A program made the position numbers and the translations under genes. Positions 3,000-26,856 of a stretch of DNA of 47,889 nt are shown in pieces; within the stretch, counting starts at the first letter, position 1, and each line of letters starts with the position of its first letter. Below the pieces are notes generated by a model, which had not been told where the DNA came from, did not search any database, and worked only from the letters and a program-made list of their open reading frames with translations. Source of the DNA: Rickettsiales bacterium (GTDB lineage: Bacteria; Pseudomonadota; Alphaproteobacteria; Rs-D84). The DNA lies in contig JAISGC010000055.1 of assembly GCA_031263295.1 (NCBI GenBank), positions 1-47,889 of the forward strand, read 5' to 3'.

Positions 3000-3065
3000 A
3001 AAATCCTTACCCGGATTATACCATATTTTAGGGGCGGGGGACAAGAGACGAGGGACTAGGAGTTA

Positions 3066-3229
3066 GGGATTATTCCAGAGAGCAATTCCCCTTCGCAGGC
3101 GTTGCGGGTGCCCCGCGTAGCGGGGCGGGGTAGTGGAAATAAAAATTATTTTTACCCCTACCCCGTCCGCCGCTTCGCGGCGGCCAGCCCTTCCCTTTGG
3201 GAAGGGGAATTGCGCTCTGGAATAATCCC
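3066..3229. repeat. compound inverted repeat (ATTATTCCAGAGCGC..TTCCCC family) with nested hairpins
   Basis: gggattattccagagagcaattcccc (3066-3091) pairs with ggggaattgcgctctggaataatccc (3204-3229). Inner palindromes ggggcggggtag../..cccctaccccg. Flanked by AGGGACT-type and CTCAAAC-type heptads. The same arm recurs at 47851-47889 and partly at 19815-19830. Confidence 0.75.
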
Positions 3230-3254
3230 ACTCAAACTCAAACCTGAACTCAAA

Positions 3255-5084
3255 CTAGCCCTTGATTATCTTCTCAATCTCCTCGCGGGTCAGGGTCTCG
3301 CGGGCCAACAGCTCATCGGCAAGGCGCTTCATCTTCGCGCGGTTTTTGACCAACACCGCGCGGGCGCGCTTGTAAGACGCCGCCATCCAGTCCGCGACCT
3401 CGGCATCGACCAATCGCGCCGTATCGTCGGAGGCATTTTCCAAATATCCGCGGCCCCATCCGTCGACCTGATTCACCGAAACCATTCCGACCTTCGGCGA
3501 CAATCCCCATGCGGTTATCGCGCGGCGGGCCAGGCGCGAGGCCTGCGCAATATCGTTCTCGGCGCCGGTCGTGATTTGGTCCGCGCCGAAAAATATTTCT
3601 TCGGCCGCCCGTCCCGCCAGCGAGATTTCGAGATCGGCGCGAATCTCCGCCAGCGTCAGGGACACCTTGTCGTCGACGGGCAAATACTGCACCATACCGA
3701 GCGCGCGGCCGCGCGGCAGAATCGTCGCCTTGTGAATCGGGTCGACCAGACCCGCGTGCGATACGGACAGCATCGCGTGCCCGGCCTCGTGATAGGCAGT
3801 GCGCCGCAAATCCTCGCCGCGCATTTTTTTATCCTTTCGCGGCCCCATCAGAATCTTGTCGCGCGCCTCGTCTATATCGGCGTCATTGACCGCGGTCCGG
3901 CCCGCGCGCGCCGCATTCAGCGCCGCCTCGTTCAATAAATTATTCAGGTCGGCGCCGGAAAATCCGGTCGTGCCGCGCGCCGCCGCATCCAGGGAAACGG
4001 ATTTGTCGAACTTCATTTTCTTCGCATAGAGTTCCAGAATCGCAAGGCGCCCCGCGCGGTCGGGCAGCTCGATATAAACCTGCCGGTCGAAGCGCCCCGG
4101 CCGCAGCAGCGCGGCGTCGAGCATATCGGGTCGGTTCGTCGCCGCGACTATTATCAGATTCGCGTCCGACGAAAAGCCGTCCATTTCAATCAGCAGCTGG
4201 TTCAGCGTCGCCTCCCTGTCGCTGTCGGTGTGGACGCTGCGGCCGCGCGCCGCGCCGATGGCGTCGATTTCGTCAATGAATAAAATCGACGGAGAATGCT
4301 CGCGCGCGATGTCGAAAAAGTCTTTGATTTTCTGAACGCCGAGGCCGACGATTATTCCCGAAAAGTCCGAGCCCGACACCGCATAGAAAGGCACGCCCGC
4401 CTCGCCCGCTATGGCTTTCGCAAGCAATGTTTTGCCCGTGCCGGGCTCGCCCGAAAGCAAGACGCCGCGCGGGACCCGCGCGCCGAGGTCTTTGTATTTT
4501 TTCGGATGTTTCAGAAAGTCGACAACCTCGGAGACTTCCTTTTTGACGGACTCGATGCCCGCGACATCGGCAAACTTGACGCCGGTTTTGCCCGATACGA
4601 TTTTGGTCTTGCTGCCGAACATTCCGCCTATGCCGCCGCCGCGCATCGACCGCATTCCGCGGAACAGCCACCATATGAACAGCACGCTGATGATTGTCGG
4701 AATCCAGTCCGAAAGCGCCGCCCATCCGCGGCTGTCGTCGACCTTGACGACCGCGCCCGACGCGGCGATGCGCTGCAAGAGCGCCGGGTCGGCCGGAACC
4801 TTGGCGACATATTTCGTCCCGTCCGCGAACTCGCCCGACGCGTCCGCGCCGTTCAGCGAAAATGTTTTAAGCTGCTTGGTCTCGCTCGCCGTCATAATTT
4901 CGGAAAATGTTTTTTCGGCCGGCTTCGCCGCCTCGTCTCTGCGCCCGTCGATAATCGAGCGCCCGACCAGGACTATGAATATTATTACGAACAGCGTCAA
5001 GAATCCGTTGCCGCCGCCCTTTCCGGCCGCGCGAACTTTCATATTCGTATCGACCGCGTTTTGTTTCAACTGCGCCTTTGCCAT
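3255..5084 (-). CDS. ftsH: ATP-dependent zinc metalloprotease FtsH
   Basis: Walker A GEPGTGKTLLAKAIAGEAGVPF, AAA second region, HEAGHA zinc motif and an N-terminal TM. Start taken at ATG 5084 (MAKAQLKQ, AAAGGGA upstream) rather than the ORF-track start 5111. Confidence 0.95.
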   Translation of the reverse strand: MAKAQLKQNAVDTNMKVRAAGKGGGNGFLTLFVIIFIVLVGRSIIDGRRDEAAKPAEKTFSEIMTASETKQLKTFSLNGADASGEFADGTKYVAKVPADPALLQRIAASGAVVKVDDSRGWAALSDWIPTIISVLFIWWLFRGMRSMRGGGIGGMFGSKTKIVSGKTGVKFADVAGIESVKKEVSEVVDFLKHPKKYKDLGARVPRGVLLSGEPGTGKTLLAKAIAGEAGVPFYAVSGSDFSGIIVGLGVQKIKDFFDIAREHSPSILFIDEIDAIGAARGRSVHTDSDREATLNQLLIEMDGFSSDANLIIVAATNRPDMLDAALLRPGRFDRQVYIELPDRAGRLAILELYAKKMKFDKSVSLDAAARGTTGFSGADLNNLLNEAALNAARAGRTAVNDADIDEARDKILMGPRKDKKMRGEDLRRTAYHEAGHAMLSVSHAGLVDPIHKATILPRGRALGMVQYLPVDDKVSLTLAEIRADLEISLAGRAAEEIFFGADQITTGAENDIAQASRLARRAITAWGLSPKVGMVSVNQVDGWGRGYLENASDDTARLVDAEVADWMAASYKRARAVLVKNRAKMKRLADELLARETLTREEIEKIIKG

Positions 5085-5182: not shown

Positions 5183-6601
5183 ATGTCATTACAGAAACTC
5201 CGCGACGCCAGCGAAACGGTTTGGGCGAAATTACTGATGGGAATACTGATATTCTCGTTCGTGGGCTGGGGCGCGGCGAACTGGATACTGGGCGAGGCCT
5301 CGGTCGGCGGGGCGTTGCTCCGCGTCGGCGGCGAATCCATATCGGCCGAAGAGTTCGACAGGGAGCGCTCGCGCCAAATCGCGCAGATGGGCAAAGAAAT
5401 GCAGCGCCAAATCTACGCCGATAAAACGACCCAAAAATACTTCACGGGCCAGGTCATATCGAACCTGACGACCCGGCTCTTGTTGGAGCAGCACGCGTCT
5501 AACTTGGGGCTCGCGGTATCGCCGTCGCGGGTCGCGAACATTATAAAGGGTTCGCCGGAGTTCTGGGAAAACGGGGCTTTCTCGACAGACAAGTTCGACG
5601 CCGTCCTGGATATGAACGGCATAACCGAGAAATATTTCGCCGATACTTTGCGCAGGCAGGAACTGCGCGAGATGATTCTGTCGTCCTTGGGGGCCCAGCC
5701 CGCGACGCCGAACTTCGTCGCGACCGCGATTTACAACTCGCGCAACCAAACGCGGAAAATCGAATACTCGGCGATAAAGTTCGACGCGTTCAAGGCCGCG
5801 GGAACGCCGACCGAGGACGACCTGCGCATAGTCTATTCCAAAAATCCGAAGCTGGTGCCCGAGTTCCGCACGATTTCATATGTGATTGTCGGCGCGAAGA
5901 TGGCGAACGCGGAATCGTTCGACCGCGGCTTCGAGTCGGCGCGCAGCATAGAGGATATGCTGGCCGCAGGCGATTCGATACGCGACGCGGCCAAAAAGAT
6001 GCGCGCGAACTATCGCACATTCGACCCTATGACAATCCAAAAGCGCACGACCAGCGGCGCCATGGTCGGCGACTCGCTTCTGACCGAAGAAATGATGCAG
6101 AAATTGTTCTCGATGGAGCAGGGTTTGGAGAGCGAAATAATGGAGGCGAAAAACGGATTCGTGATTTGGCGGGTCGAGAAAATAGACCCGGCGCGCGCGA
6201 CGCCGTTCGGCGAACGCCGCACGGAACTGACCGCTCTGTGGCGCAGGGGCGAGCAGGAAAAGCAGGCCTATGCGAGAGCCAACGAGATTGTGGTCGATGG
6301 GAAAAAACTTGCGGTGTCGGCGACTATCGGACGGGCGGCGGGCGCGCCGCTCGAAGTGCTCGCGGCGGCATTTCAACAAGACCCGGGCCGCGCGAAAATC
6401 ACGGCGGCCGACGGAGTTTTCTATGTCGTGAAAGTCCTGGAAGAAATCCAGCCGAAGCCGAGCGCCGCCAAGATAAAAGAGATAGCGGCCGAGATGCGCT
6501 CACAGGTCTCGCGCCAGATTCTGGACGATTACTCGGGATACTTGTCGCGCAAATATCCCGTCCGCCCGAACGAGAGGATGATGAGAAGGTTGTTTCAGTA
6601 A
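5183..6601 (+). CDS. PpiD-like periplasmic chaperone (SurA N-terminal-domain protein)
   Basis: N-terminus MSLQKLRDASETVWAKLLMGILIFSFVGWG resembles the PpiD membrane anchor and SurA_N region. SD AAGGAAAAG upstream. No clear parvulin motif recognised. Confidence 0.6.
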   Translation: MSLQKLRDASETVWAKLLMGILIFSFVGWGAANWILGEASVGGALLRVGGESISAEEFDRERSRQIAQMGKEMQRQIYADKTTQKYFTGQVISNLTTRLLLEQHASNLGLAVSPSRVANIIKGSPEFWENGAFSTDKFDAVLDMNGITEKYFADTLRRQELREMILSSLGAQPATPNFVATAIYNSRNQTRKIEYSAIKFDAFKAAGTPTEDDLRIVYSKNPKLVPEFRTISYVIVGAKMANAESFDRGFESARSIEDMLAAGDSIRDAAKKMRANYRTFDPMTIQKRTTSGAMVGDSLLTEEMMQKLFSMEQGLESEIMEAKNGFVIWRVEKIDPARATPFGERRTELTALWRRGEQEKQAYARANEIVVDGKKLAVSATIGRAAGAPLEVLAAAFQQDPGRAKITAADGVFYVVKVLEEIQPKPSAAKIKEIAAEMRSQVSRQILDDYSGYLSRKYPVRPNERMMRRLFQ

Positions 6602-6689
6602 GGACTAGGATTAGGACTAGGACTGGAAATCGTTATAGTGTCGCGGCGCAATAACAAGTTCCACCTAGTCCTAATCCTAATCCTAGTCC
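6601..6689. repeat. hexad-arm hairpin element H1 (AGGACT/AGGATT units)
   Basis: aggactaggattaggactaggactgg (6601-6625) pairs with ccacctagtcctaatcctaatcctagtcc (6661-6689). The loop contains gcgcaataacaag. It sits exactly between the ppiD-like stop and the ftsY ATG. Confidence 0.9.
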
Positions 6690-6692
6690 CAA

Positions 6693-7469
6693 ATGAGTTT
6701 TATAAAACGAATCTTCGGCAAGAAAGTCAACGACGATTTGGAAGAAATCCTGATCGCCGCCGACATCGCGCCGGATGCGGCGAAAGAGCTCGCGAAGTCG
6801 GCGGATGAAAAAGACCTGCGCGAAAAATTACTAAAATACGCCCGCCGCCTTGAACCTGATACCAATTCCCTGATACCTGATACCCTTTTAATAGTCGGCG
6901 CGAACGGCGCGGGCAAAACGACGACCATCGGCAAACTGGCCGCGCGATGGGCGGGCGAAAACCGCCGCGTAGTCATAGGCTCGGGCGATACTTTCCGCGC
7001 CGCCGCGACCGAGCAGTTGGACATTTGGGCCGAGCGCGCGGGCGCCGAAGTCATCCACGGAACCGAACCCGCGGCCGTCGCGTATAAAACTTTGGAAACA
7101 GACGCGGATGTGAAAATAATCGACACGGCGGGCCGACTTCATAACCGCCAAGACCTGATGGACGAGCTTGCGAAAATCGTCCGCGTTATGAAAAAGCTGG
7201 ACCCGTCGGCGCCGAGCGATACCTGGCTTGTCTTGGACGGCAGCCACGGCCAGAACGCATTGGCGCAGATAGAGTTCTTCAACCGCGCCGCGCCGCTGAC
7301 GGGACTGATTGCGACGAAGATGGACGGGACGGGGCGCCAGGGATTTTTGATAACATACGCCGCGCGCGAAGCCCATCCTCTGCCCGTCATATTCACGGGC
7401 TGGGGCGAGCGCGCCGAAGACCTCCGCCCCTTTTCTGCCGAAGATTTTGTGAATAGAATATTGGACTAG
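6693..7469 (+). CDS. ftsY: signal recognition particle receptor FtsY (compact, no acidic A domain)
   Basis: GANGAGKTTTIGKLA P-loop, DTAGRLHN, TKMDGT motifs of the SRP GTPase NG domain. Stop TAG 7467-7469 lies inside the repeat arm. Confidence 0.9.
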   Translation: MSFIKRIFGKKVNDDLEEILIAADIAPDAAKELAKSADEKDLREKLLKYARRLEPDTNSLIPDTLLIVGANGAGKTTTIGKLAARWAGENRRVVIGSGDTFRAAATEQLDIWAERAGAEVIHGTEPAAVAYKTLETDADVKIIDTAGRLHNRQDLMDELAKIVRVMKKLDPSAPSDTWLVLDGSHGQNALAQIEFFNRAAPLTGLIATKMDGTGRQGFLITYAAREAHPLPVIFTGWGERAEDLRPFSAEDFVNRILD

Positions 7470-7549
7470 GACTAGGATTAGGACTAGGTGTGACTCGCGA
7501 TTGCGCCACAACGCAATAACAACCTCCACCTAGTCCTAATCCTAGTCCT
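7463..7549. repeat. hexad-arm hairpin element H2
   Basis: ggactaggactaggattaggactaggtg pairs with cacctagtcctaatcctagtcc. Loop carries acgcaataacaac. Lies between convergent ftsY and the CPA2 antiporter gene. Confidence 0.9.
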
Positions 7550-7556
7550 AAAACTC

Positions 7557-9242
7557 TTATGAGTTTTGATAATTATCCTTCCGCATCGCCGATTGGACGC
7601 GGTTGATTTCGCGCTCGGAGATTCCGAGTTCCGACATAACGCCGCGCCCCAGCAAGAACGAAGACTCGATTGTCTCGGGCAATGCGACGCGCGCGCCTTC
7701 GGCCAATAATGTCTTTGATTCGTCCAGGTTCCGGGCGCGCGCGAAAATCCGGACATTCTTGGCGGCGCGAATCGCGGCGCGAACGGTTTTCTTCGCAACC
7801 GCCGCATTGTCGAGCGCGATTATCAGCGCCTTGGCGCCGCGCGGCCGCAGCCCGAAGCCCGCCAGGACATCGCTTCGCGTGGTATCTCCGTAATAGACGG
7901 CGAATCCGCGCTCGCGGCCGGACAATACGCGGTCTATGTTCATATCGATGGCGAGATACGGCACCTTTTCGGCGACCAGCATTTTCGCGATGGTCACTCC
8001 GACGCGCCCGAATCCGCAGATTATGACCGCCGGGCGCGCGGGCATTTCAAGATTGTATTTTTTGGCCTTGGCCGCGGAATATAAACTGCCGCGCCCGCTC
8101 AGCCAGTCGTATAGCAACAGGGCCGCGCCGGAGACAATCATCGACAGCATTATGACGGCGATAAGAATCTCGGCATGCGCGTTCGGAATCGAGTCGAACT
8201 TCGCCGCGCGAAGGGTCTGCAAAACCAACAGGCCGAACTCGCCGCCCTGCGCCAGAATCAGCGCTATGACCAGGGCCGCGCGCGCGCGCACTCCGCGCAT
8301 TCCGGCGACGATGTAAATAATCGCGAACTTCAATGCCACCAGCGCCGCCGCGCCGACCAAAATCAGCATCCAGTGTTCGCCCATCAGCTCCACATCCAAT
8401 CCCATCCCGAGCGTTATGAAAAACATCGCGCCGAATAAAGTCTGATAGGGCGCGATGTCGGCGCGCACCTGATACTGATAGAGGCTTTCCGAGAACAGCA
8501 TTCCCGCGACAAACGCCCCGATTCCGACCGGCAGGCCCAGCGCCGCGAATCCCGCGCCGCAGGCCGCGATGGTCAGCAGCACCGCCAGCAAAAACGCGAC
8601 CGGCGACTTTATGCGCGCCACTATTTTCATAAAGGGATTCATAACTACGCGCGCCAGAATTATGACGCCGATACTCAGCATCAGGGTCATAACCGAAACA
8701 TCGATTATTTCCGCGCCAAAGTTCGGAACCTTGCCCGCGAAAACCGGCATCATCGCCAATAGAGGCACCGCGAGCAGCCCTTGGAACAGCAGAATCGAAA
8801 ATGTCTGGCGCCCAAGCCGCGCGGACAACTCGTTGCGGTCGGCCAAGGATTGCAGATTCGCGGACGACGACGACATGGTCAGAATCAGCGCGATCATAAT
8901 CGCGGGCGACAACGGCCACGGCGTGATGAAATAGAGAACCGGAAACAGCGCGGCCGCAACCGCCAGCACCTCGGCCGCGCCGAGCCCGAAGATATGGCGC
9001 CGCATAGACCACAGGCGCTTGAAGTTCAGTTCGAGCCCGAGCGCGAACCACAAAAACATCATTCCGAGTTCGCTCATATAATCAAGGCCGCTGTTGCCCG
9101 CGCCGCCAAATAAACCGAGGGCGCCCGGCCCGGCGATAATTCCGGCCGCGAAAAACGCCAGCATAGGGTTGAGTTTAATCCGCCGCGCCAAATACGACAG
9201 CCCCAGCGCCAGCCCAAGAAAATACAAAACGGAAAGATTCAT
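7557..9242 (-). CDS. CPA2-family K+/H+ antiporter with C-terminal RCK/TrkA-N domain (KefB/KefC-like)
   Basis: About 12 hydrophobic segments followed by a Rossmann-like VIICGFGRVGVTIAKML domain, as in Kef-type glutathione-gated K+ efflux proteins. Confidence 0.8.
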   Translation of the reverse strand: MNLSVLYFLGLALGLSYLARRIKLNPMLAFFAAGIIAGPGALGLFGGAGNSGLDYMSELGMMFLWFALGLELNFKRLWSMRRHIFGLGAAEVLAVAAALFPVLYFITPWPLSPAIMIALILTMSSSSANLQSLADRNELSARLGRQTFSILLFQGLLAVPLLAMMPVFAGKVPNFGAEIIDVSVMTLMLSIGVIILARVVMNPFMKIVARIKSPVAFLLAVLLTIAACGAGFAALGLPVGIGAFVAGMLFSESLYQYQVRADIAPYQTLFGAMFFITLGMGLDVELMGEHWMLILVGAAALVALKFAIIYIVAGMRGVRARAALVIALILAQGGEFGLLVLQTLRAAKFDSIPNAHAEILIAVIMLSMIVSGAALLLYDWLSGRGSLYSAAKAKKYNLEMPARPAVIICGFGRVGVTIAKMLVAEKVPYLAIDMNIDRVLSGRERGFAVYYGDTTRSDVLAGFGLRPRGAKALIIALDNAAVAKKTVRAAIRAAKNVRIFARARNLDESKTLLAEGARVALPETIESSFLLGRGVMSELGISEREINRVQSAMRKDNYQNS

Positions 9243-9273: not shown

Positions 9274-9281
9274 TAAAAGTT

Positions 9282-9367
9282 TAATGACTAATGACTAATA
9301 ACTAATGTCTAATTTCTAATGAGCGGCAATTAGTAATTAGACATTAGTTATTAGTCATTAGTCATTA
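9282..9367. repeat. heptad-arm hairpin element H5 (TAATGAC units)
   Basis: taatgac taatgac taataac taatgtc taatttc taatgag - cggc - complementary arm aattagtaattagacattagttattagtcattagtcatta. About 32 perfectly paired nt. Located in a divergent promoter region. Confidence 0.9.
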
Positions 9368-9456
9368 AAAAAAAGTCCTTGCGTCAAGTTTGCGGTTTTT
9401 GCTAATCTTGCCCGGACGAGGGAAATTGAGAGATTACCCGATAAGGAGTTTTTATT

Positions 9457-10760: not shown

Positions 10761-11868
10761 TCGACCAAAAAAACAACTGCCAACTAAAAAAAACTCCGTT
10801 TCCAAAAAGAAAACCGCCGCCAAAAAAACGGCGGTTAAAAAACGCGCAGTCAAAAAAAGCCCCCACCCAAGAGTTGCTACGGCTCGCTCCGCTCGCCAAG
10901 CAACTCTATCCCGCCCCCGCAAGCGGGGGCAGGAAAAGCGTTCGACGCGCCGTAAGATTATTCTCTATTCTCTGTTCTCTGTTCTCTTTTCTCTTAGTCT
11001 CTTATTCTCTTATTCTCTATTTATCCGCCCGGCGTGGACGGGCGGCGAATACATCGTCGCAAGCGGCGCGTCCGTATCGCGCGTTGTCGCGGACCTGAAC
11101 CAGGGCGATATTTTCAAGTTTTTAATCCGCGCGCGCGGCGGCCGGGTGATGGCAGGAACCTATGACATTCCCGAAAGCGCCAGCGTCTGGCGCCTGGCTC
11201 GGATGCTGTCCTTGGGCGAGATCGCGAGCGCATCGATTACTATCCCCGAGGGCCTGACCAGCAAACAAATCGCGCTGCTGCTGGGGGCGGCGCACGAATA
11301 CAAAGACGGCGAATTATTTCCCGACACCTATTCGATTCCAAAGGGTTCCGACCCGGCGCAGGTCATCGATATGATGAAGAAAAAAATGGACCGCGTGCGC
11401 GAGAACTGGGAACGGGCGGGCCGCCGTTTGCCCGCTCCGTTAAAAGACTGGAACGAGGTCATGACGCTCGCGTCGATTGTCCAAAAGGAAACGCCGCGCG
11501 CGTCCGAAATGCCGGTTGTCGCGTCGGTCTATCTGAACCGGCTGCGAAAAAAAATGCGGTTGCAGGCGGACCCGACGGTCGTCTATGCGATAACGGGCGG
11601 GCTCGGCGATATGCAGGGGCGCCCGCTGTTTTCCAAACACTTGCAGACCGCGAGCCCGTATAACACTTACCGCAACGCGGGTCTGCCGCCCGCGCCGATC
11701 GCGAATGTCGGAATGGACGCGATCGCGGCGGTGCTGAATCCGGCGGACACGAATTATTTATACTTCGTCGCAGACGGCACCGGCGGCCATAGTTTCAGCC
11801 GCACCCTCGACGAGCACAACGCCAATCGCAGCGTCTGGCGACGGATTAAAAAAAAGAACAATGAATGA
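10672..11868 (+). CDS. mltG: endolytic murein transglycosylase MltG (YceG); true start uncertain
   Basis: YceG domain: TIPEGLTSKQIA, LFPDTY, ASIVQKETPRASEMPVVASVYLNRL, SPYNTYRNAGLPPAPI. The first ~115 codons of the ORF are made of repeat elements. There is no in-frame ATG before the TM segment, so the start is TTG 10672 or an unidentified alternative. Confidence 0.85.
   Translation: MKAIFFLFSPGLRPIENKKGVFYQTTPHQARPKKQLPTKKNSVSKKKTAAKKTAVKKRAVKKSPHPRVATARSARQATLSRPRKRGQEKRSTRRKIILYSLFSVLFSLSLLFSYSLFIRPAWTGGEYIVASGASVSRVVADLNQGDIFKFLIRARGGRVMAGTYDIPESASVWRLARMLSLGEIASASITIPEGLTSKQIALLLGAAHEYKDGELFPDTYSIPKGSDPAQVIDMMKKKMDRVRENWERAGRRLPAPLKDWNEVMTLASIVQKETPRASEMPVVASVYLNRLRKKMRLQADPTVVYAITGGLGDMQGRPLFSKHLQTASPYNTYRNAGLPPAPIANVGMDAIAAVLNPADTNYLYFVADGTGGHSFSRTLDEHNANRSVWRRIKKKNNE
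10860..10932 (+). repeat. E1 element, copy 2 (in frame inside the mltG 5' ORF)
   Basis: cccccacccaag-agttgc-..ctcgccaa-gcaact-ctatcccgccccc-gcaa-gcgggggcagg, translated as ..SPHPRVATARSARQATLSRPRKRGQ.. Confidence 0.8.
10958..11031 (+). repeat. ATTCTCT/GTTCTCT heptad tract encoding the MltG membrane anchor
   Basis: attctct attctct gttctct gttctct tttctct tagtctc ttattct cttattc is translated ILYSLFSVLFSLSLLFSYSLFI, the only hydrophobic segment ahead of the YceG domain. Confidence 0.8.
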
Positions 11869-11871
11869 CGC

Positions 11872-12020
11872 GCGGTGTTCCCCTCCTTTGGAGGGGTGCC
11901 GCCGAAGGCGGCGGGGTGGTGGCGAAGGTCTGCACTGCCTGCTGCAAGTACCACCCCGTCATTTTTTTGCTTTGCAAAAAAATGCCACCCCTCCAAAGGA
12001 GGGGAACACCACCCCACCGC
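11872..12020. repeat. R1 REP-like inverted repeat (GGTGTTCCCCTCCTTTGGAGGGGTG arms)
   Basis: Left arm gcggtgttcccctcctttggaggggtg, right arm cacccctccaaaggaggggaacacc. Inner ggggtggt..accacccc and the palindrome tttttttgctttgcaaaaaaa. Confidence 0.85.
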
Positions 12021-13164: not shown

Positions 13165-13321
13165 GCGATGCCTTCCGCGCGGTGTTCCCCTCCTTTGGAG
13201 GGGTGGGCGGGCAACGGCCGGGGTGGGTCTGGTGAAAGGCAGTGCCGTTGTTCGACACCCCCCCGCCGCCCTGCGGGCGGCACCCCTCCAAAGGAGGGGA
13301 ACACCGCGCGAAAGGCATCGC
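13165..13321. repeat. R1 REP-like inverted repeat, inserted in the leader of the Cys-rich gene
   Basis: gcgatgccttccgcgcggtgttcccctcctttggaggggtg ... cacccctccaaaggaggggaacaccgcgcgaaaggcatcgc. It is absent from the homologous leader at 16754-16833. Confidence 0.85.
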
Positions 13322-13376
13322 ATTGTCGGGAAACTTTGGGGCGCAAGCCCGGCGAAGCGCCGAAGGCGCGAAGACG

Positions 13377-13441: not shown

Positions 13442-13471
13442 ATAGCGGGCCGGTCGCATTGACCGGGTGCA

Positions 13472-13584
13472 TAAAAAAAACGGCCTCCGCCGTTATGTTT
13501 TTACGCTCGGATTACGACGCATAAAGCGCGCCGCTCAATATGGGATTTTCTACTTCCCAGAACGCAAGTTTCCCAACTTGGTTC
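13472..13584 (-). ncRNA. candidate small RNA / leader module with its own terminator, copy 1
   Basis: Starts just downstream of the promoter at 13591-13619. Contains hairpin CCAAGUUGGGAAACUUG and the box CGUCGUAAUCCGAGCGUAAAAAC, and ends in AACGGCGGAGGCCGUU + U8. Homologous to 16553-16666. Confidence 0.5.
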
Positions 13585-13590
13585 CCTATC

Positions 13591-13619
13591 ATTATAGATG
13601 TTATGCATTTTTTTGTAAA
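13591..13619 (-). promoter_or_regulatory. sigma70-like promoter TTTACA-17-TATAAT
   Basis: Minus strand ccctTTTACAaaaaaatgcataacatcTATAATgat. Nearly identical context to the promoter at 16518-16546. Confidence 0.65.
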
Positions 13620-13626
13620 GGGATTT

Positions 13627-13729
13627 TTAACGACCAACTACTAACGACTAGTGACTAGTGGCAGCGCGACGGCGGGCACCCCACTAGTCACTAGTCGTTA
13701 GTCACTAGTCGCTAGTAGTTAGTCGTTAA
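13627..13729. repeat. heptad-arm hairpin element H6 (CTAGTGA/CTAACGA units)
   Basis: ttaacgaccaactactaacgactagtgactagtgg - loop - ccactagtcactagtcgttagtcactagtcgctagtagttagtcgttaa. The right arm carries two extra heptads. Confidence 0.85.
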
Positions 13730-13733
13730 AAAA

Positions 13734-14501
13734 TTATTTCAGCACCGCGCGGATGCGTTGCGCGGCGTCGCCGTTATACTTGAACAAGTCCTTGAAGTCC
13801 GCGTCTTTCGGCCACCTGCGTCGCAGGTCCCCGGTTATCTCGCCGTTTTCCGCATTCTCTTCCAAGAGATCCGCAAACTGCGCGCCCGCGATGTAGCAGT
13901 TGGAATTGTTCGCGGTCCTGCAAATCTCGGCGACATCTGCGTAAATCGCGACCGCGTCCGGCAGCCGCCCGATGCGAACGAAAACCTCCGCCTTTTTCAC
14001 CAGCGAATAGACATCGCGCGAGCGCCCCGGTATCGCCAAATATTTTTCATAAATCTCTATCTCCTTGTCGGCCATTCCGTGCAGGCGAAAAAACTCGGCG
14101 CGCTCCTTCCAATAAAATCCGACGCGCTGCGATATGTCGGTCAGCTGCGAGTTCAGGCCGCGTAACGAATCGGCGACCTGCAATTCCGAAATCGCGCGCG
14201 CGAAATATTTGCGCTTCGCGTCCTCGCCGCAGGCCTCCAACGAGAGGCGATTCAGAATCTTGGCGCGTTCCAAATAGTCCGACGCGCCGTCGCTGCCGAG
14301 TTTTTTCAGCTGCGATTCCAAGACCGAAACGACGCGGTCGCAAGCGGGCGCGGTCGGGTCGATGGATTCGGCCGCCGCGGTCGGCGATGATTTTTCGCGA
14401 TGCAAAAAGAACGGCGCAATCAAGAAAAACTCAATCGATAAAACCAGCGCGGCGAACAATCCGCCCAGCGCCCACTTTTTCCATTTTGATGTCTTTTTCA
14501 T
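13734..14501 (-). CDS. membrane-anchored TPR-like repeat protein
   Basis: Start taken at ATG 14501 (AAAAGGAGGGAG SD; MKKTSKWKKWALGGLFAALVLSIEFFLIA anchor). Helical-repeat body (..AEFFRLHGMADKEIEIYEKYLAI..VFVRIGRLPDAVAIYADV..). The ORF-track extension to 14561 runs into repeat D. Confidence 0.6.
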   Translation of the reverse strand: MKKTSKWKKWALGGLFAALVLSIEFFLIAPFFLHREKSSPTAAAESIDPTAPACDRVVSVLESQLKKLGSDGASDYLERAKILNRLSLEACGEDAKRKYFARAISELQVADSLRGLNSQLTDISQRVGFYWKERAEFFRLHGMADKEIEIYEKYLAIPGRSRDVYSLVKKAEVFVRIGRLPDAVAIYADVAEICRTANNSNCYIAGAQFADLLEENAENGEITGDLRRRWPKDADFKDLFKYNGDAAQRIRAVLK

Positions 14502-14517: not shown

Positions 14518-14632
14518 GGGTTCGCGTGATAATCGCCCATCTCGACGCGTTTTTCACCCACTCGCGTATTCTTATACGCTTCGGGGTGAAAAACGCATCG
14601 ACCTGAACGATTCTGACGCGAACACCTCGCTG
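14518..14632. repeat. D element, ~115-nt rod-like imperfect palindrome, copy 1
   Basis: Reverse-complement match to 42787-42900 along its whole length, with compensatory changes in two internal stems. Confidence 0.85.
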
Positions 14633-14641
14633 TTCCTCTCT

Positions 14642-14664
14642 AAAAAATCGCTTCGCGATTTTTC
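14642..14664 (-). terminator. intrinsic terminator downstream of aspS
   Basis: Minus strand aaaaatcgc-gaa-gcgatttttt, preceded by AGGGACT-type heptads that begin at the aspS TAG stop. Confidence 0.55.
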
Positions 14665-14691
14665 TAGTCCCTTGTCCCTAATCCCTAGTCC

Positions 14692-16452
14692 CTACTTTTT
14701 ACGCACTTGTATATGCGCGTCGCGGAGCTGCTGCTCCGAGACCTCCGACGGCGAACCCATCAGCAAATCCTGGCCCCGCTGGTTCGCAGGAAATGCGACC
14801 TGTTCCCGTATCGCATCGTTGCCGACGATTTGCGAGATGATGCGCTCCAAGCCGAATGCGCAGCCCCCGTGCGGCGGCACGCCATAACCGAACGCCGAAT
14901 AAAGCCCGCCGAACTTTGTCTTCACTTCATCTTCGGACAGCCCGACGACCTCGAACAATTTCAGCATAACCGGCCGCGAATAATTGCGCAGACCGCCCGA
15001 ACAAATCTCGTGCCCGTTCAGGACCATATCGTATTGCCACGCCTTTAATTTCATAGGCTCCGACAGGTCGAGATTTTCGAGATCGCCCTGCGGCCGCGAG
15101 AAAGGATTATGTCCGAACGCGATTCCGTTCGGCGCGTTTTCGTCCGCCTCGAAAAACGGGAAGTCTTCAATCCAGCACAGGCGGAACTCGTTCGCGTCAA
15201 TCAGCCCAAGGTCTTCGCCGAACCGCGCGCGCAACTTTCCAGCCGCCTTGGCCGCGGCGTCGATTTTTTCGCAGATGAAAAACACGCTGTCGCCGTCGGC
15301 AAGCCCGCACACACTTTTGATTTTCTCAACGCGCGCGGCGTCCAACTTTTTCGCAACCGGGCCTTTCGCGCCCGCCGCGTCAAATACAATATAACCAAGA
15401 CCCGCCAGCCCGAGTTCTTCGGTCGCGAATCCTTCCGTTTTATCAAACCAAGACCGCGGCTTGTCCGCCGTTTTCGGCGCGGGCACCGCGCGCACGACGC
15501 TTCCGCTCGCGACCGCGTTCGCAAAGATTCCAAAGTCGGACCCGGCGAAAATATCAGACACATCCGAAATCAAAATCGGATTGCGCAGGTCCGGCTTGTC
15601 GGTTCCGTATTTCAGCATCGCGTCGTCAAATGCGATGTGCGGAATCTCGGCCGCAATTTTCGCATCGGGACGAAACGCCTTCAATAATTCCGGAATAATT
15701 TCGTCGCCGAGCGCGTGCACATCGGACTGCTCGACAAACGACATTTCTATATCCAACTGATAAAACTCCAACATTCTATCCGCGCGAAGGTCCTCGTCCC
15801 GCATACAGGGCGCGATTTGGAAATATTTGTCGAAGCCCGCGATTTGGAGCAGTTGCTTGAACTGCTGCGGCGCCTGGGGCAGCGCATAGAATTGCCCGTG
15901 GTGCAGCCGCGACGGGACCAGGAAATCCCGTGCGCCTTCGGGCGACGACACGGTTAAAATCGGCGTCTGAAACTCCGAGAATCCGAGCGACCACATTTTA
16001 TCGCGCAGCCACTTCATAATCTTGTTGCGCAGCAAAATATTTTTGTGCAATGTCTCGCGCCGCAAATCCAGGAAGCGATATTTGTATCGAATATCCTCGC
16101 CGACTTCGTCCTCGCCGAAGACCTGGAACGGCAGCGGATCGGCGGCCGAAAGTATATCGAACTTTTCGACTTTGATTTCGATTCCGCCGGTCGGGAGCTT
16201 GGGATTGATTTGGTCCGCCGCGCGGGCGACAACCGCGCCCGTTATGCGAATGACCGATTCGGGATGGACTTTTTCTATGTCGGCCGGGTCGCCGAAAACG
16301 CATTGCGTGATGCCGTAATTGTCGCGAAGGTCCACAAACAAAAGCCCGCCGTGATCGCGCACGCGATGCACCCAGCCCGACAATACGACCGATTGGCCCG
16401 CGGCCTTTGCCGTCAATTCCCCGCAACTATGAGTCCTGTAAATATTCGACAT
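14692..16452 (-). CDS. aspS: aspartate--tRNA ligase
   Basis: 586 aa. N-terminal OB fold (GWVHRVRDHGGLLFVDLRD) and class II motifs (FYQIAPCMRDEDLRADR, GGLRNY, GVPPHGGCAFGLERI). Confidence 0.95.
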   Translation of the reverse strand: MSNIYRTHSCGELTAKAAGQSVVLSGWVHRVRDHGGLLFVDLRDNYGITQCVFGDPADIEKVHPESVIRITGAVVARAADQINPKLPTGGIEIKVEKFDILSAADPLPFQVFGEDEVGEDIRYKYRFLDLRRETLHKNILLRNKIMKWLRDKMWSLGFSEFQTPILTVSSPEGARDFLVPSRLHHGQFYALPQAPQQFKQLLQIAGFDKYFQIAPCMRDEDLRADRMLEFYQLDIEMSFVEQSDVHALGDEIIPELLKAFRPDAKIAAEIPHIAFDDAMLKYGTDKPDLRNPILISDVSDIFAGSDFGIFANAVASGSVVRAVPAPKTADKPRSWFDKTEGFATEELGLAGLGYIVFDAAGAKGPVAKKLDAARVEKIKSVCGLADGDSVFFICEKIDAAAKAAGKLRARFGEDLGLIDANEFRLCWIEDFPFFEADENAPNGIAFGHNPFSRPQGDLENLDLSEPMKLKAWQYDMVLNGHEICSGGLRNYSRPVMLKLFEVVGLSEDEVKTKFGGLYSAFGYGVPPHGGCAFGLERIISQIVGNDAIREQVAFPANQRGQDLLMGSPSEVSEQQLRDAHIQVRKK

Positions 16453-16517
16453 AAAATAAACCTTTTAACCAGCCGAGCATACAAAAGAAAAATTGGTTCT
16501 GCAAATATAAAAAGCCC

Positions 16518-16546
16518 TTTACAAAAAATCGCAAACCTTTTATAAT
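16518..16546 (+). promoter_or_regulatory. sigma70-like promoter TTTACA-17-TATAAT
   Basis: ccctTTTACAaaaaatcgcaaaccttTATAATgtg. Paralogous to 13591-13619. Confidence 0.65.
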
Positions 16547-16552
16547 GTGAAA

Positions 16553-16666
16553 CGAACCAAGTTGGGAAACTTGGATCAAGGGCCGTGAGAAGCCTTCTTA
16601 AAGCGGTGCGTCGTTTTCGCATCGTAATCCGCGCATAAAAACCTTGACCGCGTGCGGTCTTTTTTT
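16553..16666 (+). ncRNA. candidate small RNA / leader module with its own terminator, copy 2
   Basis: Hairpin CCAAGU-UGGGAA-ACUUGG (16557-16574), box CAUCGUAAUCCGCGCAUAAAAAC, terminator GACCGC-GU-GCGGUC + U7 (16646-16666). Confidence 0.5.
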
Positions 16667-16685
16667 ATGCGCCAATCCCCGTTAT

Positions 16686-16753
16686 GGTCGGGGGGCCGCG
16701 ATAAGTAATTTCGCGGGATCATTACTTTAAGATGATTTCTCAACCCCCTGATC
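16686..16753 (+). promoter_or_regulatory. candidate three-way-junction leader RNA, copy L2
   Basis: P1 GGUCGGGGGG/CCCCCUGAUC, P2 CCGCGA..UCGCGG, P3 AUCAU..AUGAU. Lies 80 nt upstream of the Cys-rich gene start. Confidence 0.5.
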
Positions 16754-16833
16754 GCATCAAGATTTCCCAATGACGCCGCGCCGGACACCAATCATCCGGC
16801 ACGGCCAATAAAAACAAAACAGGGAGAACTCTC

Positions 16834-17322
16834 ATGAAAAAACTATTCGCGATTCTTGCAATCGCAACGACGGCGGCCCCGGCCGCGAAGATGTGCCTGC
16901 GGCACATATACAGTGTCAACGGATACAAATACGCATACAACAACCAGAACGGGGCGTTCGTCCTCGCCGCCGGAAACTGCCGCGGAACGGCGAGCAGCCA
17001 ATGCGGCGGCTATCCGCAAAGCGCGACATATGCGGGCGTCGGCGCGCCGACCGGATACGACTGCGACAATATTTTCGCGGCGGGCATATCGGCCTGCGTA
17101 GGAACCGGAAATGAGCCGACCCAGGACGCCGCCACCGGCGACATCTGCATGTGCAAAATGACCTGGCCGAAGGAATCGAATTGGATTTACGCGGCGACTC
17201 AGCCTTGGTCGACCGGCTATCCGGATTATTGCAGGCAGAACTGCGCGTCGCTGTGCGGATGCCATATGTATAACTCCGCCGCGCCGAACGCGTTCACATC
17301 GGCGATGTTCAGCGGGATATGA
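16834..17322 (+). CDS. small secreted Cys-rich protein, family member B
   Basis: Signal peptide MKKLFAILAIATTAAPAA, 12 Cys, SD CAGGGAG. Shares motifs with 12738..13136. Confidence 0.75.
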   Translation: MKKLFAILAIATTAAPAAKMCLRHIYSVNGYKYAYNNQNGAFVLAAGNCRGTASSQCGGYPQSATYAGVGAPTGYDCDNIFAAGISACVGTGNEPTQDAATGDICMCKMTWPKESNWIYAATQPWSTGYPDYCRQNCASLCGCHMYNSAAPNAFTSAMFSGI

Positions 17323-17352
17323 TTCAGCGCCGCGTTGGTCGAAAAACAACCA

Positions 17353-17382
17353 TTAGACACGCGCGGTTAAACTTTGTATAAT
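17353..17382 (+). promoter_or_regulatory. promoter TTAGAC-18-TATAAT, 7 nt from the ftsE ATG (leaderless candidate)
   Basis: caTTAGACacgcgcggttaaactttgTATAATtcccgaaATG. No SD is possible in the 7-nt gap. Confidence 0.5.
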
Positions 17383-17389
17383 TCCCGAA

Positions 17390-18139
17390 ATGGAAAGCGG
17401 GAATATTATCTCTTTTATGGATGTCGGCACGCGCTACGAGGCCGGGCCCGAGATTCTGTCCAATGTGTCCTTCAACATAAACGCGGGCCAGTTTTTTTTC
17501 CTGACTGGGAAATCCGGCGCCGGGAAAACCACCCTGCTCCGTCTGATTTATCAGTTGCACAAGCAGACGCGCGGCCAGATTCGCCTGTTCGGGAAAAACA
17601 CCGCCAGTCTGACGCCCGACGACCTGGTAATTCTTCGTCGCAAGATGTCGATTGTGTTTCAGGAATATTCGCTGATTTCGCATTTGTCCGTCTTCGACAA
17701 TGTGGCGCTACCGCTGCGGGTGCGCGGGCATCCGGAGGCCGAGGTCTTGCCGACGGTTCTAAAAACTTTGCAGTGGGTGGGCCTCGAAAAATACGCGAAC
17801 GCGCGCCCGCTGTCATTGTCGGGCGGCCAGCAGCAAAAGGTCGCGGTCGCGCGCGCGGTCATAACCCGCCCGCGGATTTTATTGGCGGACGAGCCGACGG
17901 GCTCGCTCGACGACGATTCCGCGCACAAGCTGATGGACCTGTTCGTGAAAATGAAAGACAGCTATGGATGCGCGGTTGTGATTGCGACGCACAGCCAAAA
18001 CTTGATGGGCGCGTATGACTTTCACCGGATACGGGTCGAGAACGGCGCGGTGCGCTTTGCGAACGCGGGCGACGACGCGCGCGCCTTCGGCGAGGACTAC
18101 TTCGCGGATCTCTCCAAACGATTTTCGGATATAATATAA
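17390..18139 (+). CDS. ftsE: cell-division ABC ATPase FtsE-like
   Basis: Walker A GKSGAGKTTLLRLI, signature LSGGQQQKVAVARA, Walker B ILLADEPTGSLD. FtsE-like N-terminus. No ftsX follows. Confidence 0.75.
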   Translation: MESGNIISFMDVGTRYEAGPEILSNVSFNINAGQFFFLTGKSGAGKTTLLRLIYQLHKQTRGQIRLFGKNTASLTPDDLVILRRKMSIVFQEYSLISHLSVFDNVALPLRVRGHPEAEVLPTVLKTLQWVGLEKYANARPLSLSGGQQQKVAVARAVITRPRILLADEPTGSLDDDSAHKLMDLFVKMKDSYGCAVVIATHSQNLMGAYDFHRIRVENGAVRFANAGDDARAFGEDYFADLSKRFSDII

Positions 18140-18150: not shown

Positions 18151-19149
18151 ATGAACAAAATATTTGCGGTGTTGGGCGGGGTCGGGGCGCTATGGTTCGG
18201 GCGAGACTTGTTGCTACCCATAATAACGGCGGTGTTTTTGTGGTATCTGACCATCGCCATCGGCTCTTACTATCGGCGCATCCTTAAAATAGGATGGCTG
18301 TCAAACGCGGCGGCGGGCGCGTCCTTGCTCGGCGTCGTCTGGGGATTCATCGAGCTGATTCGCCCGATGCTGTGGGACCTCTATAAACAGGCGCCGCAGA
18401 TTGCCGAAGGCGGCAAGCATCTTATCGCCGAGCTCTCCGAAATCGTCGGGACCGAGATTTCCTTCGCGGGCCTGCCGACATTACAGGAATCGATTATGGC
18501 CGCGGGCAACTCCTTGGCCTCGGGCGGCGCGGTTCTGGCCATGATAATAATCTATATGATTTTCATTTTCATAGAACAGGGTTCGTTCCCGAAAAAACTC
18601 CGCGCATTGTTCCCGCAGAATAAGCAGTTTGGAAAGGCGAGCTTCATACTGCACGCTATTGATTCCCAGATGAAAAAATATCTCGGCGTCAAGACCTTCG
18701 TGTCGCTGCTGCAAGGCTTCGCGTTTTATCTGTGCCTGGCGGTAATCGGGGTGCCGTTCGCAGCTCTATGGGGTTTCGGGCAGTTCCTGCTGAACTATAT
18801 TCCGACATTCGGCTCCATCGCGGCTACAACTCTGCCGATGCTCTATTCGTTCGCGATAAACGGCGACATAACCGATGTGATTCTTATCGGAATCTCGGGC
18901 GCGATTGTGAACTTGATATTCGGAAATATTCTGGACCCGAAGCTGACGGGCAAATCCTTGAACCTGTCGCCGCTGGCGATACTGGTCAGCCTGATATTCT
19001 GGGGGATGCTGTGGGGCAGCCTGGGGATGTTCTTCTCGGTTCCGATTTTGGTCGGCATCTATGTCGCGGCCGCCCAGTTCGAATGCACGCGCTGGATAGC
19101 AGTTCTGTTGTCCGCGGACGGACAGATACCGGATAAGAATGAAGAGTAG
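18151..19149 (+). CDS. AI-2E family (PerM/UPF0118) transporter
   Basis: Polytopic. Conserved tail ..NYIPTFGSIAATTLP..ILDPKLTGKSLNLSPLAILVSLIFWGMLWGSLGMFFSVPI. The TAG stop lies in the H7 arm. Confidence 0.8.
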   Translation: MNKIFAVLGGVGALWFGRDLLLPIITAVFLWYLTIAIGSYYRRILKIGWLSNAAAGASLLGVVWGFIELIRPMLWDLYKQAPQIAEGGKHLIAELSEIVGTEISFAGLPTLQESIMAAGNSLASGGAVLAMIIIYMIFIFIEQGSFPKKLRALFPQNKQFGKASFILHAIDSQMKKYLGVKTFVSLLQGFAFYLCLAVIGVPFAALWGFGQFLLNYIPTFGSIAATTLPMLYSFAINGDITDVILIGISGAIVNLIFGNILDPKLTGKSLNLSPLAILVSLIFWGMLWGSLGMFFSVPILVGIYVAAAQFECTRWIAVLLSADGQIPDKNEE

Positions 19150-19267
19150 AGAATAAGAGAAACGCAAACGCTTCGCGTTTGCAGAGAATAAGAGAATAGA
19201 ATTTGCTATCGCGCAATAACTTTATTTCAAGCTCAATTCTCTTATTCTCTCATTCTCTTATTCTCTA
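19146..19267 (+). repeat. heptad-arm element H7 (AGAGAAT units), non-coding copy
   Basis: agagaataagagaa-[cgcaaacgcttcgcgtttgc]-agagaataagagaataga - loop with gcgcaataac - attctcttattctctcattctcttattctct. Confidence 0.9.
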
Positions 19268-19808: not shown

Positions 19809-19865
19809 CTTTTATGAGGTTATTCCAGAGCGCTTTCCTAATCCCTAGTCCTAATCCTAGTCCTT

Positions 19866-22009: not shown

Positions 22010-22029
22010 CAAGGGAATACCGCCCAGCT

Positions 22030-26853: not shown

Positions 26854-26856
26854 AAA

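Follow-up and report, generated by a model that had tools for sequence, protein, structure and literature searches.

The window analysed here is the whole 47,889-bp stretch of contig JAISGC010000055.1, one contig of a metagenome-assembled genome (MAG) of a Rickettsiales bacterium, and all window-based counts refer to these ~48 kb. It harbours 11 palindromes able to form hairpins whose arms consist of tandem short units, the focal one being the TAATGAC-type element at 9280-9369. These elements are arrays of the short tandemly repeated repetitive (STRR) or long simple sequence repeat kind in the form of inverted pairs, a kind that is already known and is here unusually diverse and recent. We propose, with slightly more confidence than doubt, that they are selfish or neutral DNA palindromes, which would have grown by slippage, been copied by folding back and been tolerated at gene boundaries. 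The window itself is ordinary chromosomal DNA (GC ~55%, with very CG-rich coding regions) that carries pheT, ftsH, a ppiD-like gene, ftsY, a kefC-like gene, dnaN, mltG, aspS, lepB, lpxI, grpE, tolQR, nrdR, SLT, rnhB and one tRNA-Leu gene.

The repeat load of this DNA is well above that of shuffled sequence. Close inverted 12-mers form 23 clusters, whereas 100 first-order shuffles gave 1.24 on average and at most 5, and 29-31 arrays of period 5-9 are present, the same kind of shuffle giving no such run. Taken over all arrays of the window, 19 distinct units are found, period 7 accounting for 12 arrays and period 6 for 14. The arrays of the 18 elements described below are intergenic, with the exception of five that encode hydrophobic N-terminal segments. 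The 11 hairpins are 90-146 nt long, with arms of 21-51 nt that are 78-98% complementary and that often enclose a GC mini-hairpin; their units belong to at least seven unrelated types with periods of 6, 7 and 8, most of them AT-rich and containing stop codons.

Palindromes with arms of tandem units

The hairpins and their gene context are given below, the focal element first; no strand is assigned to any of them.

9280-9369: T9282, two 41-nt arms (9280-9320 and 9329-9369), 98% complementary, around an 8-nt loop (GAGCGGCA); GC 24%.
6599-6696: H6601, a palindrome of AGGACT/AGGATT hexamers with a conserved core, occupying the entire spacer from the stop codon of the ppiD-like gene (6599-6601) to the start of ftsY (6693).
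7463-7552: H7463, a hexamer palindrome between the convergent ftsY and kefC-like genes; the ftsY stop codon (7467-7469) lies inside the first unit, and the kefC-like stop codon is at 7557-7559.
20818-20912: H20818, a hexamer palindrome with perfectly mirrored arms (-77 kcal/mol as RNA), flanked by the stop codon of an outer-membrane-protein (OMP) gene (20918-20920, - strand) and the start of the next gene (20801, - strand).
37904-37999: H37904, a hexamer palindrome exactly between the SLT stop codon (37906-37908, within the first unit) and the rnhB start (38000).
13624-13732: C13627, a CTAG-rich heptamer palindrome of AACGACT/AGTGACT with a GC core, abutting the stop codon (13734-13736) of a 275-aa gene on the - strand; one arm has two surplus units (14 nt), and each of the six frames contains 3-6 stops.
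19146-19266: E19146, a AAGAGAAT-type palindrome with an internal GC mini-hairpin (19162-19183), between an AI-2E transporter gene, whose stop codon (19147-19149) lies inside the first unit, and the start of a DUF218 gene.
26716-26856: E26716, with a purine arm (26716-26747), complementary arms (26807-26819 and 26839-26853) and a mini-hairpin (26820-26838); on the - strand the purine arm is the signal-peptide core FSYSLILLFS of an OMP gene, in whose 5' leader the complementary arms and the mini-hairpin are located.
27538-27676: E27538, paralogous to E26716 and 87% identical to it across 139 nt, on the neighbouring OMP-like gene; the arm 27538-27568 encodes FSYSLILLFS and the remainder is 5' leader, in a region divergent with lpxI.
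35144-35245: E35144, a weaker AGAGAAC-type palindrome (the weakest of the 11, -31 kcal/mol), whose arm 35144-35177 encodes the signal-peptide core of a 285-aa protein (gene 34388-35245, - strand).
23607-23699: G23606, built of AAAGTTC/AATTTGC/AAAGTGC units with a GC mini-hairpin (GTTCGCGTAGCGAAC), downstream of a 340-aa gene and upstream of lepB.

Each arm of T9282 holds six TAATGAC-type units, and units 1-4 are mirrored in both arms (GAC, GAC, AAC, GTC), including the variants TAATAAC and TAATGTC. As single-stranded DNA the element folds at -35.9 kcal/mol, against -5.4 +/- 1.8 kcal/mol for shuffled sequences (z = -16.7, with none of 200 shuffles as good), and at about -52 kcal/mol as RNA; the hairpin with TAATGAC arms that an earlier note had placed at 9282 is thereby confirmed. 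It lies between the divergent kefC-like (start 9242, - strand) and dnaN (start 9457, + strand) genes, has five to six stops per frame in all six frames, and gave no match when compared with phages by BLAST, where the low-complexity filter may mask the arms. On one side it abuts the extended -10 element of the kefC-like promoter, and on the other lies the conserved dnaN upstream region, which begins with an A8 run. The same -10 element is conserved in contig L116 of a close relative (ENA sample ERZ28639336; contigs L116, L122 and L250, 19 kb, genes with 78-85% nucleotide identity). Homology to this relative extends up to 9277 (L116) and sets in again from 9368 (L250). Because it stops at the edges of the element and the flanking blocks are non-adjacent in the relative, T9282 is, as judged by alignment, lineage-specific sequence located exactly at a synteny break between the kefC-like promoter and the dnaN upstream region.

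The earlier note had ascribed one hairpin build to at least 13 loci and listed 15. This build is present at 11 of those listed (6601, 7463, 9282, 13627, 19146, 20818, 23606, 26717, 27536, 35144 and 37904); those at 776, 3040, 3231 and 14665 are not hairpins of complementary arrays. The positions between tandem, convergent and divergent genes were described correctly, and the elements listed at 26717 and 27536 turned out to be the 5' leaders and signal-peptide coding sequences of tandem OMP paralogues. Stops in all frames are a property of the 7-nt types at 9282 and 13627, on both strands, and neither of the 6-nt type nor of the pyrimidine strand of the AAGAGAAT arrays. Five further arrays stand single or as half copies.

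14664-14694, - strand: single array with no partner; the aspS mRNA reads UAG-GGACUAGGGAUUAGGGACAAGGGACUAG, with four GGG tracts (found in this array only, among the window units), and a canonical terminator follows (14640-14662).
19836-19864, no strand assigned: half H copy of CCTAAT/CCTAGT units, 100% identical to the H20818 arm over 27 nt, with a canonical terminator after it.
775-806, no strand assigned: single AT-rich heptamer array (AATGAAT/AAAGAAT) directly 3' of the pheT stop codon, with no hairpin and with an adjacent GC module.
3051-3072, no strand assigned: single AGGGACT/AGGGATT array, forming one flank of a different palindrome (3066-3229, 165 nt).
3229-3254, no strand assigned: single ACTCAAA-type array directly after the ftsH stop codon (3255-3257, - strand), non-complementary to the array at 3051.

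A stop codon lies inside the first unit of H7463, H37904, E19146 and the single array after aspS, whilst C13627, H20818 and E26716 start 1-5 nt past a stop codon; altogether 9 of the 11 hairpins are within a few nucleotides of a stop codon or inside a 5' leader. We suggest that copies survive where they would be harmless, namely directly after stop codons, between promoters, or on the stop-free pyrimidine strand in signal-peptide and transmembrane segments. Insertions at or within the last codons would be tolerated because units bearing TAG, TAA or TGA close the reading frame at once.

Families, copying and recent origin of the elements

Several of the unit types occur as families. The four H copies share nearly invariant AGGACT/AGGATT arms of 3.5-4.5 units each and a core (..GTTAT.GCG-loop-CGCAATAACAA..CCACC) of ~75% identity, their flanks being unrelated; three half or related single arrays (19836, 14664 and 3051) can be added to them. 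The AAGAGAAT (E) type is found at five loci (19146, 26716, 27538, 35144 and, within mltG, 10958), with 94% identity between E19146 and the copies in the OMP leaders. The pairing of its GC mini-hairpin stays perfect as the sequence changes (GCAAAC/GTTTGC, GCAAAT/ATTTGC, GCGAAC/GTTCGC). The TTGCACT/AAAGTGC (G) type is present at two loci, 23607-23699 and within the SLT gene, and the TAATGAC and CTAG-rich types have one copy each in the window. The suggestion of a different flavour at each locus is thus valid for the single-copy TAATGAC and CTAG types, and fails for the H (four copies and three halves), AAGAGAAT (five loci) and TTGCACT (two loci) types. The further suggestion of one superfamily with a shared ancestor has to be abandoned: the cores of different flavours have no alignable similarity, for which reason no covariance model links them, and by this comparison the elements of different flavours share a build, not an ancestry.

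The mirrored order of variant units and the 14-nt surplus in one arm of C13627 point to copying at the level of the palindrome by folding back, and to slippage of units. We propose that the arrays gain and lose units by replication slippage, a mechanism that would account for the observed differences in unit number, and that intrastrand fold-back copying (template switching) may make and refresh the mirror symmetry seen in the arms. The H, E and TTGCACT flavours have been copied whole, arms and core together, to several loci and with no target-site duplication; recombination between arrays is one conceivable route, and the action in trans of an enzyme that recognises hairpins another.

Comparison with relatives indicates when this took place. 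Tandem-arm hairpins number 0 in the 19 kb of the close relative, which has two arrays only, against 11 in the 48-kb window, and more distant relatives (~60-75% protein identity) have 0-0.8 short-period arrays per 10 kb against 6.1. At the ppiD|ftsY boundary the empty site in L118 and L119 reads TAA-C-ATG. At SLT|rnhB the two genes overlap in relatives with 75, 71 and 61% SLT identity (an ATGA-type overlap in L124, longer ones in L123 and L117), and a 25-nt spacer is present in one with 66% (L120). At places comparable to those of the window elements, the close relative carries mini-palindromes of one unit (L122 4091-4132 and L116 2336-2390). None of the flavours occurs in ~120 kb of relatives except TTGCAAAG; a scan for this conserved arm gave four matches, about chance level, with just one in a distant relative. 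A 28-nt stretch of the G23606 arm is 100% identical in L116, where it stands on the opposite side of the orthologous gene, despite the genes of L116 being only ~78% identical at the nucleotide level. On this comparative basis the elements are lineage-specific and recent, and their absence from a relative at 78-85% nucleotide identity means that they proliferate quickly.

In addition, homology to the close relative halts 1-4 nt from the edges of two hairpins (9277|9280, 9368|9369, 37900|37904 and 37997|37999), and the blocks on either side of these four junctions are non-adjacent in that relative. The palindromes mark rearrangement breakpoints and may promote them, the association being based on small numbers. 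The exact positions at gene boundaries and synteny breaks bear on the part that small palindromes play in reshaping compact genomes and in separating genes that were once coupled.

Perfect palindromes can also arise from chimeric fold-back reads during multiple displacement amplification or library construction, and the window is a metagenome-assembled contig, so an assembly or amplification artefact had to be considered; the earlier note had itself named it as a ground for giving up its claim. Such an origin is excluded to practical certainty because an independent Logan assembly (L125), 100% identical to 35992-37936, reproduces SLT and the start of H37904, its contig ending inside the element after the arm and the start of the core, and because an independent sample and assembly (L116) carries an identical arm. 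Moreover, the elements are internal and flanked by intact genes, and arrays lie in frame inside conserved genes in two genomes.

A more substantial alternative is that the elements are true non-autonomous transposons, counterparts of MITE or Foldback elements, whose tandem units would be binding sites for a transposase or an HUH/RAYT-type enzyme encoded elsewhere. The multi-copy families with conserved arms, more variable cores and unrelated flanks are what would be expected of it, as are the filled sites of the window that are empty in relatives, the conservation of arm sequence across diverged genomes and the recent proliferation. However, no target-site duplication is found at any of the four H copies, whose flanks have no shared direct repeat and whose filled and empty sites differ by simple insertion. 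An apparent 18-nt target duplication at SLT|rnhB was withdrawn, since closer relatives show a simple ATGA overlap to be the ancestral state. Neither a RAYT, a transposase, an integrase nor an insertion sequence is encoded among the ~48 window proteins, as the earlier note had stated for RAYT and transposase genes. At least seven unrelated unit types would need several enzymes, or one that reads structure only, and the single-copy flavours, the half copies and the one-unit mini-palindromes of the relative fit growth in place at least as well. H20818 found no match among plasmids by BLAST, in which the low-complexity filter may mask the arms, and a metagenome scan for the H core plus arm returned 0 matches. 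A transposon origin consequently seems to us unlikely, though worth keeping in mind.

The hypothesis of slippage-grown, fold-back-copied palindromes has nevertheless several observations against it. The H arms are nearly invariant and their cores only ~75% identical, i.e. the arms are more conserved than the cores, and one arm is identical across genomes whose genes have diverged by ~22% of nucleotides; pure neutrality does not predict such conservation, which points to homogenisation that is still going on or to a constraint, for instance a protein that recognises the arms. The position of most copies against a stop codon could be a sign of function and not of tolerance. The purine-rich arm is the 5' arm in 11 of 11 hairpins, on both strands, a polarity for which the hypothesis does not account; the significance of this is weak given ~5 independent families, and the reverse polarity is frequent among the loci examined from other phyla. 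The search of the one 48-kb contig read revealed no mobilising enzyme, the link with synteny breaks is drawn from four junctions, with a high overall rate of rearrangement as a confounder, and slippage and template switching are both deduced from sequence patterns.

Stems folded as RNA, promoters and CTAG sites

As RNA, the hairpin stems fold at about -31 to -77 kcal/mol, most at -45 kcal/mol or stronger. No U-tract is present 3' of the hairpins, the sequence beyond the stems being A-rich or mixed, and a terminator scan of the window was not enriched (39 sites vs 31 +/- 6 in shuffles); among the hairpins it flags only the inner mini-hairpin of E19146, and canonical terminators are present elsewhere. 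In the absence of U-tracts and of enrichment, a reading as intrinsic terminators was rejected, in agreement with the earlier note. The transcribed stems would rather serve as operon punctuation or as a barrier to 3'-exonucleases, and by analogy they probably act like REP elements.

It could be argued that the stems were selected as RNA elements, i.e. as stem-loops in 3' untranslated regions or within operons that stabilise the upstream mRNA, attenuate read-through or keep translational coupling, the stop and start codons being brought together at the stem base and the multi-frame stops acting as translation insulators. The position of 9 of the 11 hairpins near a stop codon or in a 5' leader accords with this, and, between genes that used to be coupled, H6601 stands exactly in place of a 1-nt spacer and H37904 in place of a gene overlap. 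Very stable stems, stops in six frames in the 7-nt types and mini-hairpins that keep perfect pairing despite sequence change would also be expected, although DNA-level copying likewise yields perfect pairing in palindromes. However, sense RNA is more stable than antisense in three cases, less stable in five and about equal in one, and counts of G-U pairs show no sense-strand bias. This lack of a systematic sense-strand advantage speaks against the complementarity having its source in RNA-level selection and suggests an origin at the DNA level. Two of the elements, T9282 and E27538, sit between divergent promoters, relatives at 78-85% nucleotide identity possess the same genes and none of the elements, and canonical terminators are not only present but used elsewhere in the window. 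We therefore regard selection on RNA as improbable.

Another feature of the arrays is their content in CTAG. Outside the elements this tetranucleotide is ~20-fold depleted (9 observed vs ~177 expected), whereas arrays, which make up 3% of the window sequence, contain 30 of its 39 sites. This concentration, the strong conservation of short iterated units and the location of T9282 immediately beside the extended -10 element of the kefC-like promoter would be compatible with arrays that bind proteins at the DNA level, such as operators, sites for nucleoid proteins or iterons, acting for example on local supercoiling between the kefC and dnaN promoters. In Nostoc, heptamer repeats altered the regulation of a reporter by LexA and NtcA (bioRxiv 10.1101/2022.06.06.494920). 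Nonetheless, a large number of binding proteins would be required for the many unrelated unit types, most of the elements are located at the 3' ends of genes, and the close relative keeps the same promoters with none of the elements, so that we give this explanation very little credence.

Relation to known repeats and distribution in other phyla

The earlier note had not recognised the kind of element in the described REP/BIME, RPE, Correia, ERIC or MITE families. No family of Rfam 15 matches it either, only tRNA-Leu reaching the gathering score in the window and the other E-value matches being spurious miRNA hairpins far below it. The kind is nevertheless on record in the literature, as STRR, long simple sequence repeats, TAACTGA arrays (PMC4679880) and inverted pairs in Xanthomonas (PMC4692102). 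Among long simple sequence repeats, tandem heptamers form the most frequent class, with a patchy phyletic distribution (Mrazek 2007, after PMC4679880). Arrays of TAACTGA, which like TAATGAC places stop codons in all three frames, adjoin start codons in Beggiatoaceae, cyanobacteria and Bacteroidetes (PMC4679880), and Nostoc has GAC(C/T)AAT and TTTTGAA heptamers near start codons (bioRxiv 10.1101/2022.06.06.494920) as well as GGGGA(C/T)T arrays (PMC4692102). The focal TAATGAC is a rotation of the Nostoc GACTAAT, and AGGGA(C/T)T of the window resembles GGGGA(C/T)T. With STRR the window shares tandem 5-11-nt units beyond chance, prominent heptamers, more than one type of unit in a genome, a bias towards non-coding DNA and positions beside start or stop codons, and we count its arrays as members of this class. 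They differ in that STRR are mainly direct arrays (1 inverted in 170 sets for MacGregor) and the palindromic form dominates here, in that the host is an alphaproteobacterial MAG and not a cyanobacterium, and in that the arrays are absent from close relatives.

The closest precedent for the paired form is found in Xanthomonas, where 70-75 cases per genome of two convergent GGGAATC arrays are able to form stem-loops (Rehm et al, 2015, PMC4692102). About 90% of these arrays are intergenic, with a mean distance of 28 nt from the upstream stop codon or open reading frame (ORF), and heptamer arrays are rare between divergent genes in all three genomes studied (PMC4692102). Two heptamer arrays on opposite strands and close together, a stem-loop, proximity to a stop codon and a unit number that varies between related genomes are common to both systems (PMC4692102), and pairs of the same unit on opposite strands with a stem-loop are found at 11 loci of the window. 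Xanthomonas, however, uses one G-rich unit capable of forming a quadruplex, with four units preferred. In the window at least seven unrelated unit types occur, none of the hairpin units (TAATGAC, AACGACT, AAGAGAAT, AAAGTGC, AGGACT) being of the GGGNATC quadruplex type; the arms are long, often around a GC mini-hairpin, and some types are dispersed with a conserved core.

REP/BIME, Correia, ERIC and MITE-like elements are comparable as small dispersed palindromes at gene boundaries that are co-transcribed, associated with rearrangement and believed to form barriers at mRNA 3' ends, and REP elements also have no target-site duplications. None of these has arms of tandem 6-8-nt units. REP elements (see PMC3733652) are 20-40 nt long, carry a GTAG or CGTC tag and go together with a RAYT gene; the window elements end in AGGACT.., TAATGAC.. 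or AAGAGAAT.. and have neither of these tags nor any common one. The terminal inverted repeats of Correia elements and other MITEs are well defined and come with target-site duplications. The elements do not belong to integron attC sites, given flanks of housekeeping genes in mixed orientation and no integrase in the window, an assignment that leaves the R'/R'' core sites out of consideration. The Foldback and Galileo transposons (see PMC3573991 and PMC3688188) have long inverted arms of short tandem subrepeats, a variable middle and a varying number of subrepeats; being eukaryotic, of kilobase scale, mobilised by a transposase and flanked by target-site duplications, they offer an analogy of form only.

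The Rickettsia palindromic elements, compared by description only, have in common with the window a host labelled Rickettsiales and in-frame insertions in coding sequence, to which the rnhB and mltG repeats and the signal-peptide arrays may be likened. They are palindromes of unique sequence of ~100-150 bp, and their arms are not tandem units.

The same build is also found beyond the proteobacteria. A GTDB scan for AGGAYT x3.5 gave more than 115 loci from many phyla, of which 115 were analysed. None of these matches has the H arrangement, most being single AGGATT arrays, and with at least 120 matches in a viral scan the hexamer pattern proved unspecific and partly coding, so that it was dropped as evidence of relatedness. 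Yet 16 of the 115 loci, all from other phyla, contain inverted pairs of period-6/7 arrays of the same build, for example with CGTATTG (Anaerolineae MAG), AGAGGTC (Planctomycetota MAG), ATCGGG (Akkermansia) or GAAATT around a GC hairpin (Gemmatimonadota MAG). JALWZT01, an Anaerolineae MAG, holds arrays of 24 distinct units at a density of 12.4 per 10 kb. From these 16 loci and the MAG with 24 units it follows that the architecture, and many flavours per genome, are a general and little-described property of repeat-rich genomes. STRR-like heptamer arrays, as known from cyanobacteria, Xanthomonas and Beggiatoaceae, are thereby extended to an uncultured alphaproteobacterium, and the hairpin form to several phyla. 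JALWZT01 also contains a composite dispersed element (L007, L008, L013, L017, L024, L065, L073), made of an (AGGATT)n array, a conserved linker GAGGAT..CAGGCCGAGGTTAGGCGCGAGCAGGAGT and a heptamer array of AGTNATC, ACGTCAA or TACGCAT.

Two further arrays of the window lie wholly within coding sequence.

10958-11018, + strand: ATTCTCT/GTTCTCT array in mltG, encoding the only transmembrane helix of MltG, IILYSLFSVLFSLSLLFSYSLFI.
36205-36237, + strand: TTGCACT array in the SLT gene, encoding the signal-peptide core LIALCTLQIELC; 97% identical to the G23606 arm.

Together with the two tandem OMP paralogues (FSYSLILLFS) and the 285-aa protein, MltG and SLT make five proteins whose signal-peptide or transmembrane cores are encoded by the stop-free pyrimidine strand of a heptamer or octamer array. 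Unit number in such segments differs between the window and the close relative (~9 units in mltG vs ~7 in L250), and more distant relatives have conventional segments: the MltG helix is conventional in L251, a relative with 85% DnaN identity, and array coding of the SLT signal peptide is confined to the window and its 88% relative. This reuse of arrays as signal peptides is the newer part of the findings. Arrays that act as cores of targeting segments offer a concrete, testable way in which the expansion of repeats gives rise to protein targeting segments or reshapes them, and for annotation they entail wrong start-codon calls and spurious ORFs.

A bolder proposition, to which we attach a low probability, is that tandem-arm palindromes constitute a distinct cross-phylum class of self-propagating fold-back elements, free of target-site duplications, that would seed breakpoints and whose stop-free strand would supply hydrophobic segments. 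Were it true, this strand would be a recurrent source of new signal peptides and membrane anchors, or of replacements for existing ones, as in MltG, SLT, the two OMP paralogues and one secreted protein of the window.

Other repeats, inserted in frame in rnhB and mltG, resemble Rickettsia palindromic elements in their behaviour. The sequence 38113-38145 of rnhB equals 10905-10937 in the N-terminal tail of mltG, a small GC-rich palindromic repeat. The rnhB loop after AAAVVF has different insertions in the window and in L122 (4250-4376), with short loops in more distant relatives, and the lysine-rich tail of MltG has different repeat modules in the window and in L250 (1600-1700).

Dispersed repeats of other kinds are also present. 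A repeat GTCATTCCCGC(G/C)..GCGGGAATGAC forms large inverted pairs (38654-38812 and 22276-22346; L122 9477-9547; L251 3278-3479) that are common to the window and its relatives. In form the repeat resembles Neisseria dRS3; a Neisseria-like identity of the DNA, considered because of the dRS3-like repeat at 38670-38811, was rejected, no DNA uptake sequences being found in the window. The repeat GGTGTTCCCCTCCTTTGGAGGGGTG (11869-12011, 13176-13323, 22029-22081, 22371-22423) has six copies, arranged as three inverted pairs that enclose 75-340 nt. The sequences 14519-14633 and 42786-42900 are inverted copies (91% identity across 115 nt) of a palindromic element of ~100 nt; one lies upstream of a 275-aa membrane-protein gene and the other beside a cold-shock protein gene.

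Two paralogous candidate small-RNA genes (13470-13619, - strand, and 16518-16670, + strand) have a sigma-70 promoter match of 11/12 (TTTACA-17-TATAAT), the shared blocks AACCAAGTTGGGAAACTTG and GCGTCGTAATCCG and a terminator; they have no Rfam match, and the locus is conserved in the close relative (L250 3295-3422). A conserved structured intergenic sequence, GGGGAGTT...GGCTCCCCGGCC..., likewise with no Rfam match, is found at 35270-35412 and 42110-42250 and in L122 (5960-6100). As regards composition, GATC is depleted in the window (69 vs 182 expected) and TCGA enriched (316). The minimum of the cumulative GC skew at ~16000-18000, beside a 381-nt AT-richer spacer between divergent genes (16453-16833), may correspond to the replication-origin region. 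Finally, the lower-GC segment 42000-44700 (0.48), which adjoins tRNA-Leu and encodes NERD-domain nuclease-like and SH3/superinfection-immunity-like proteins, may be a small acquired islet.

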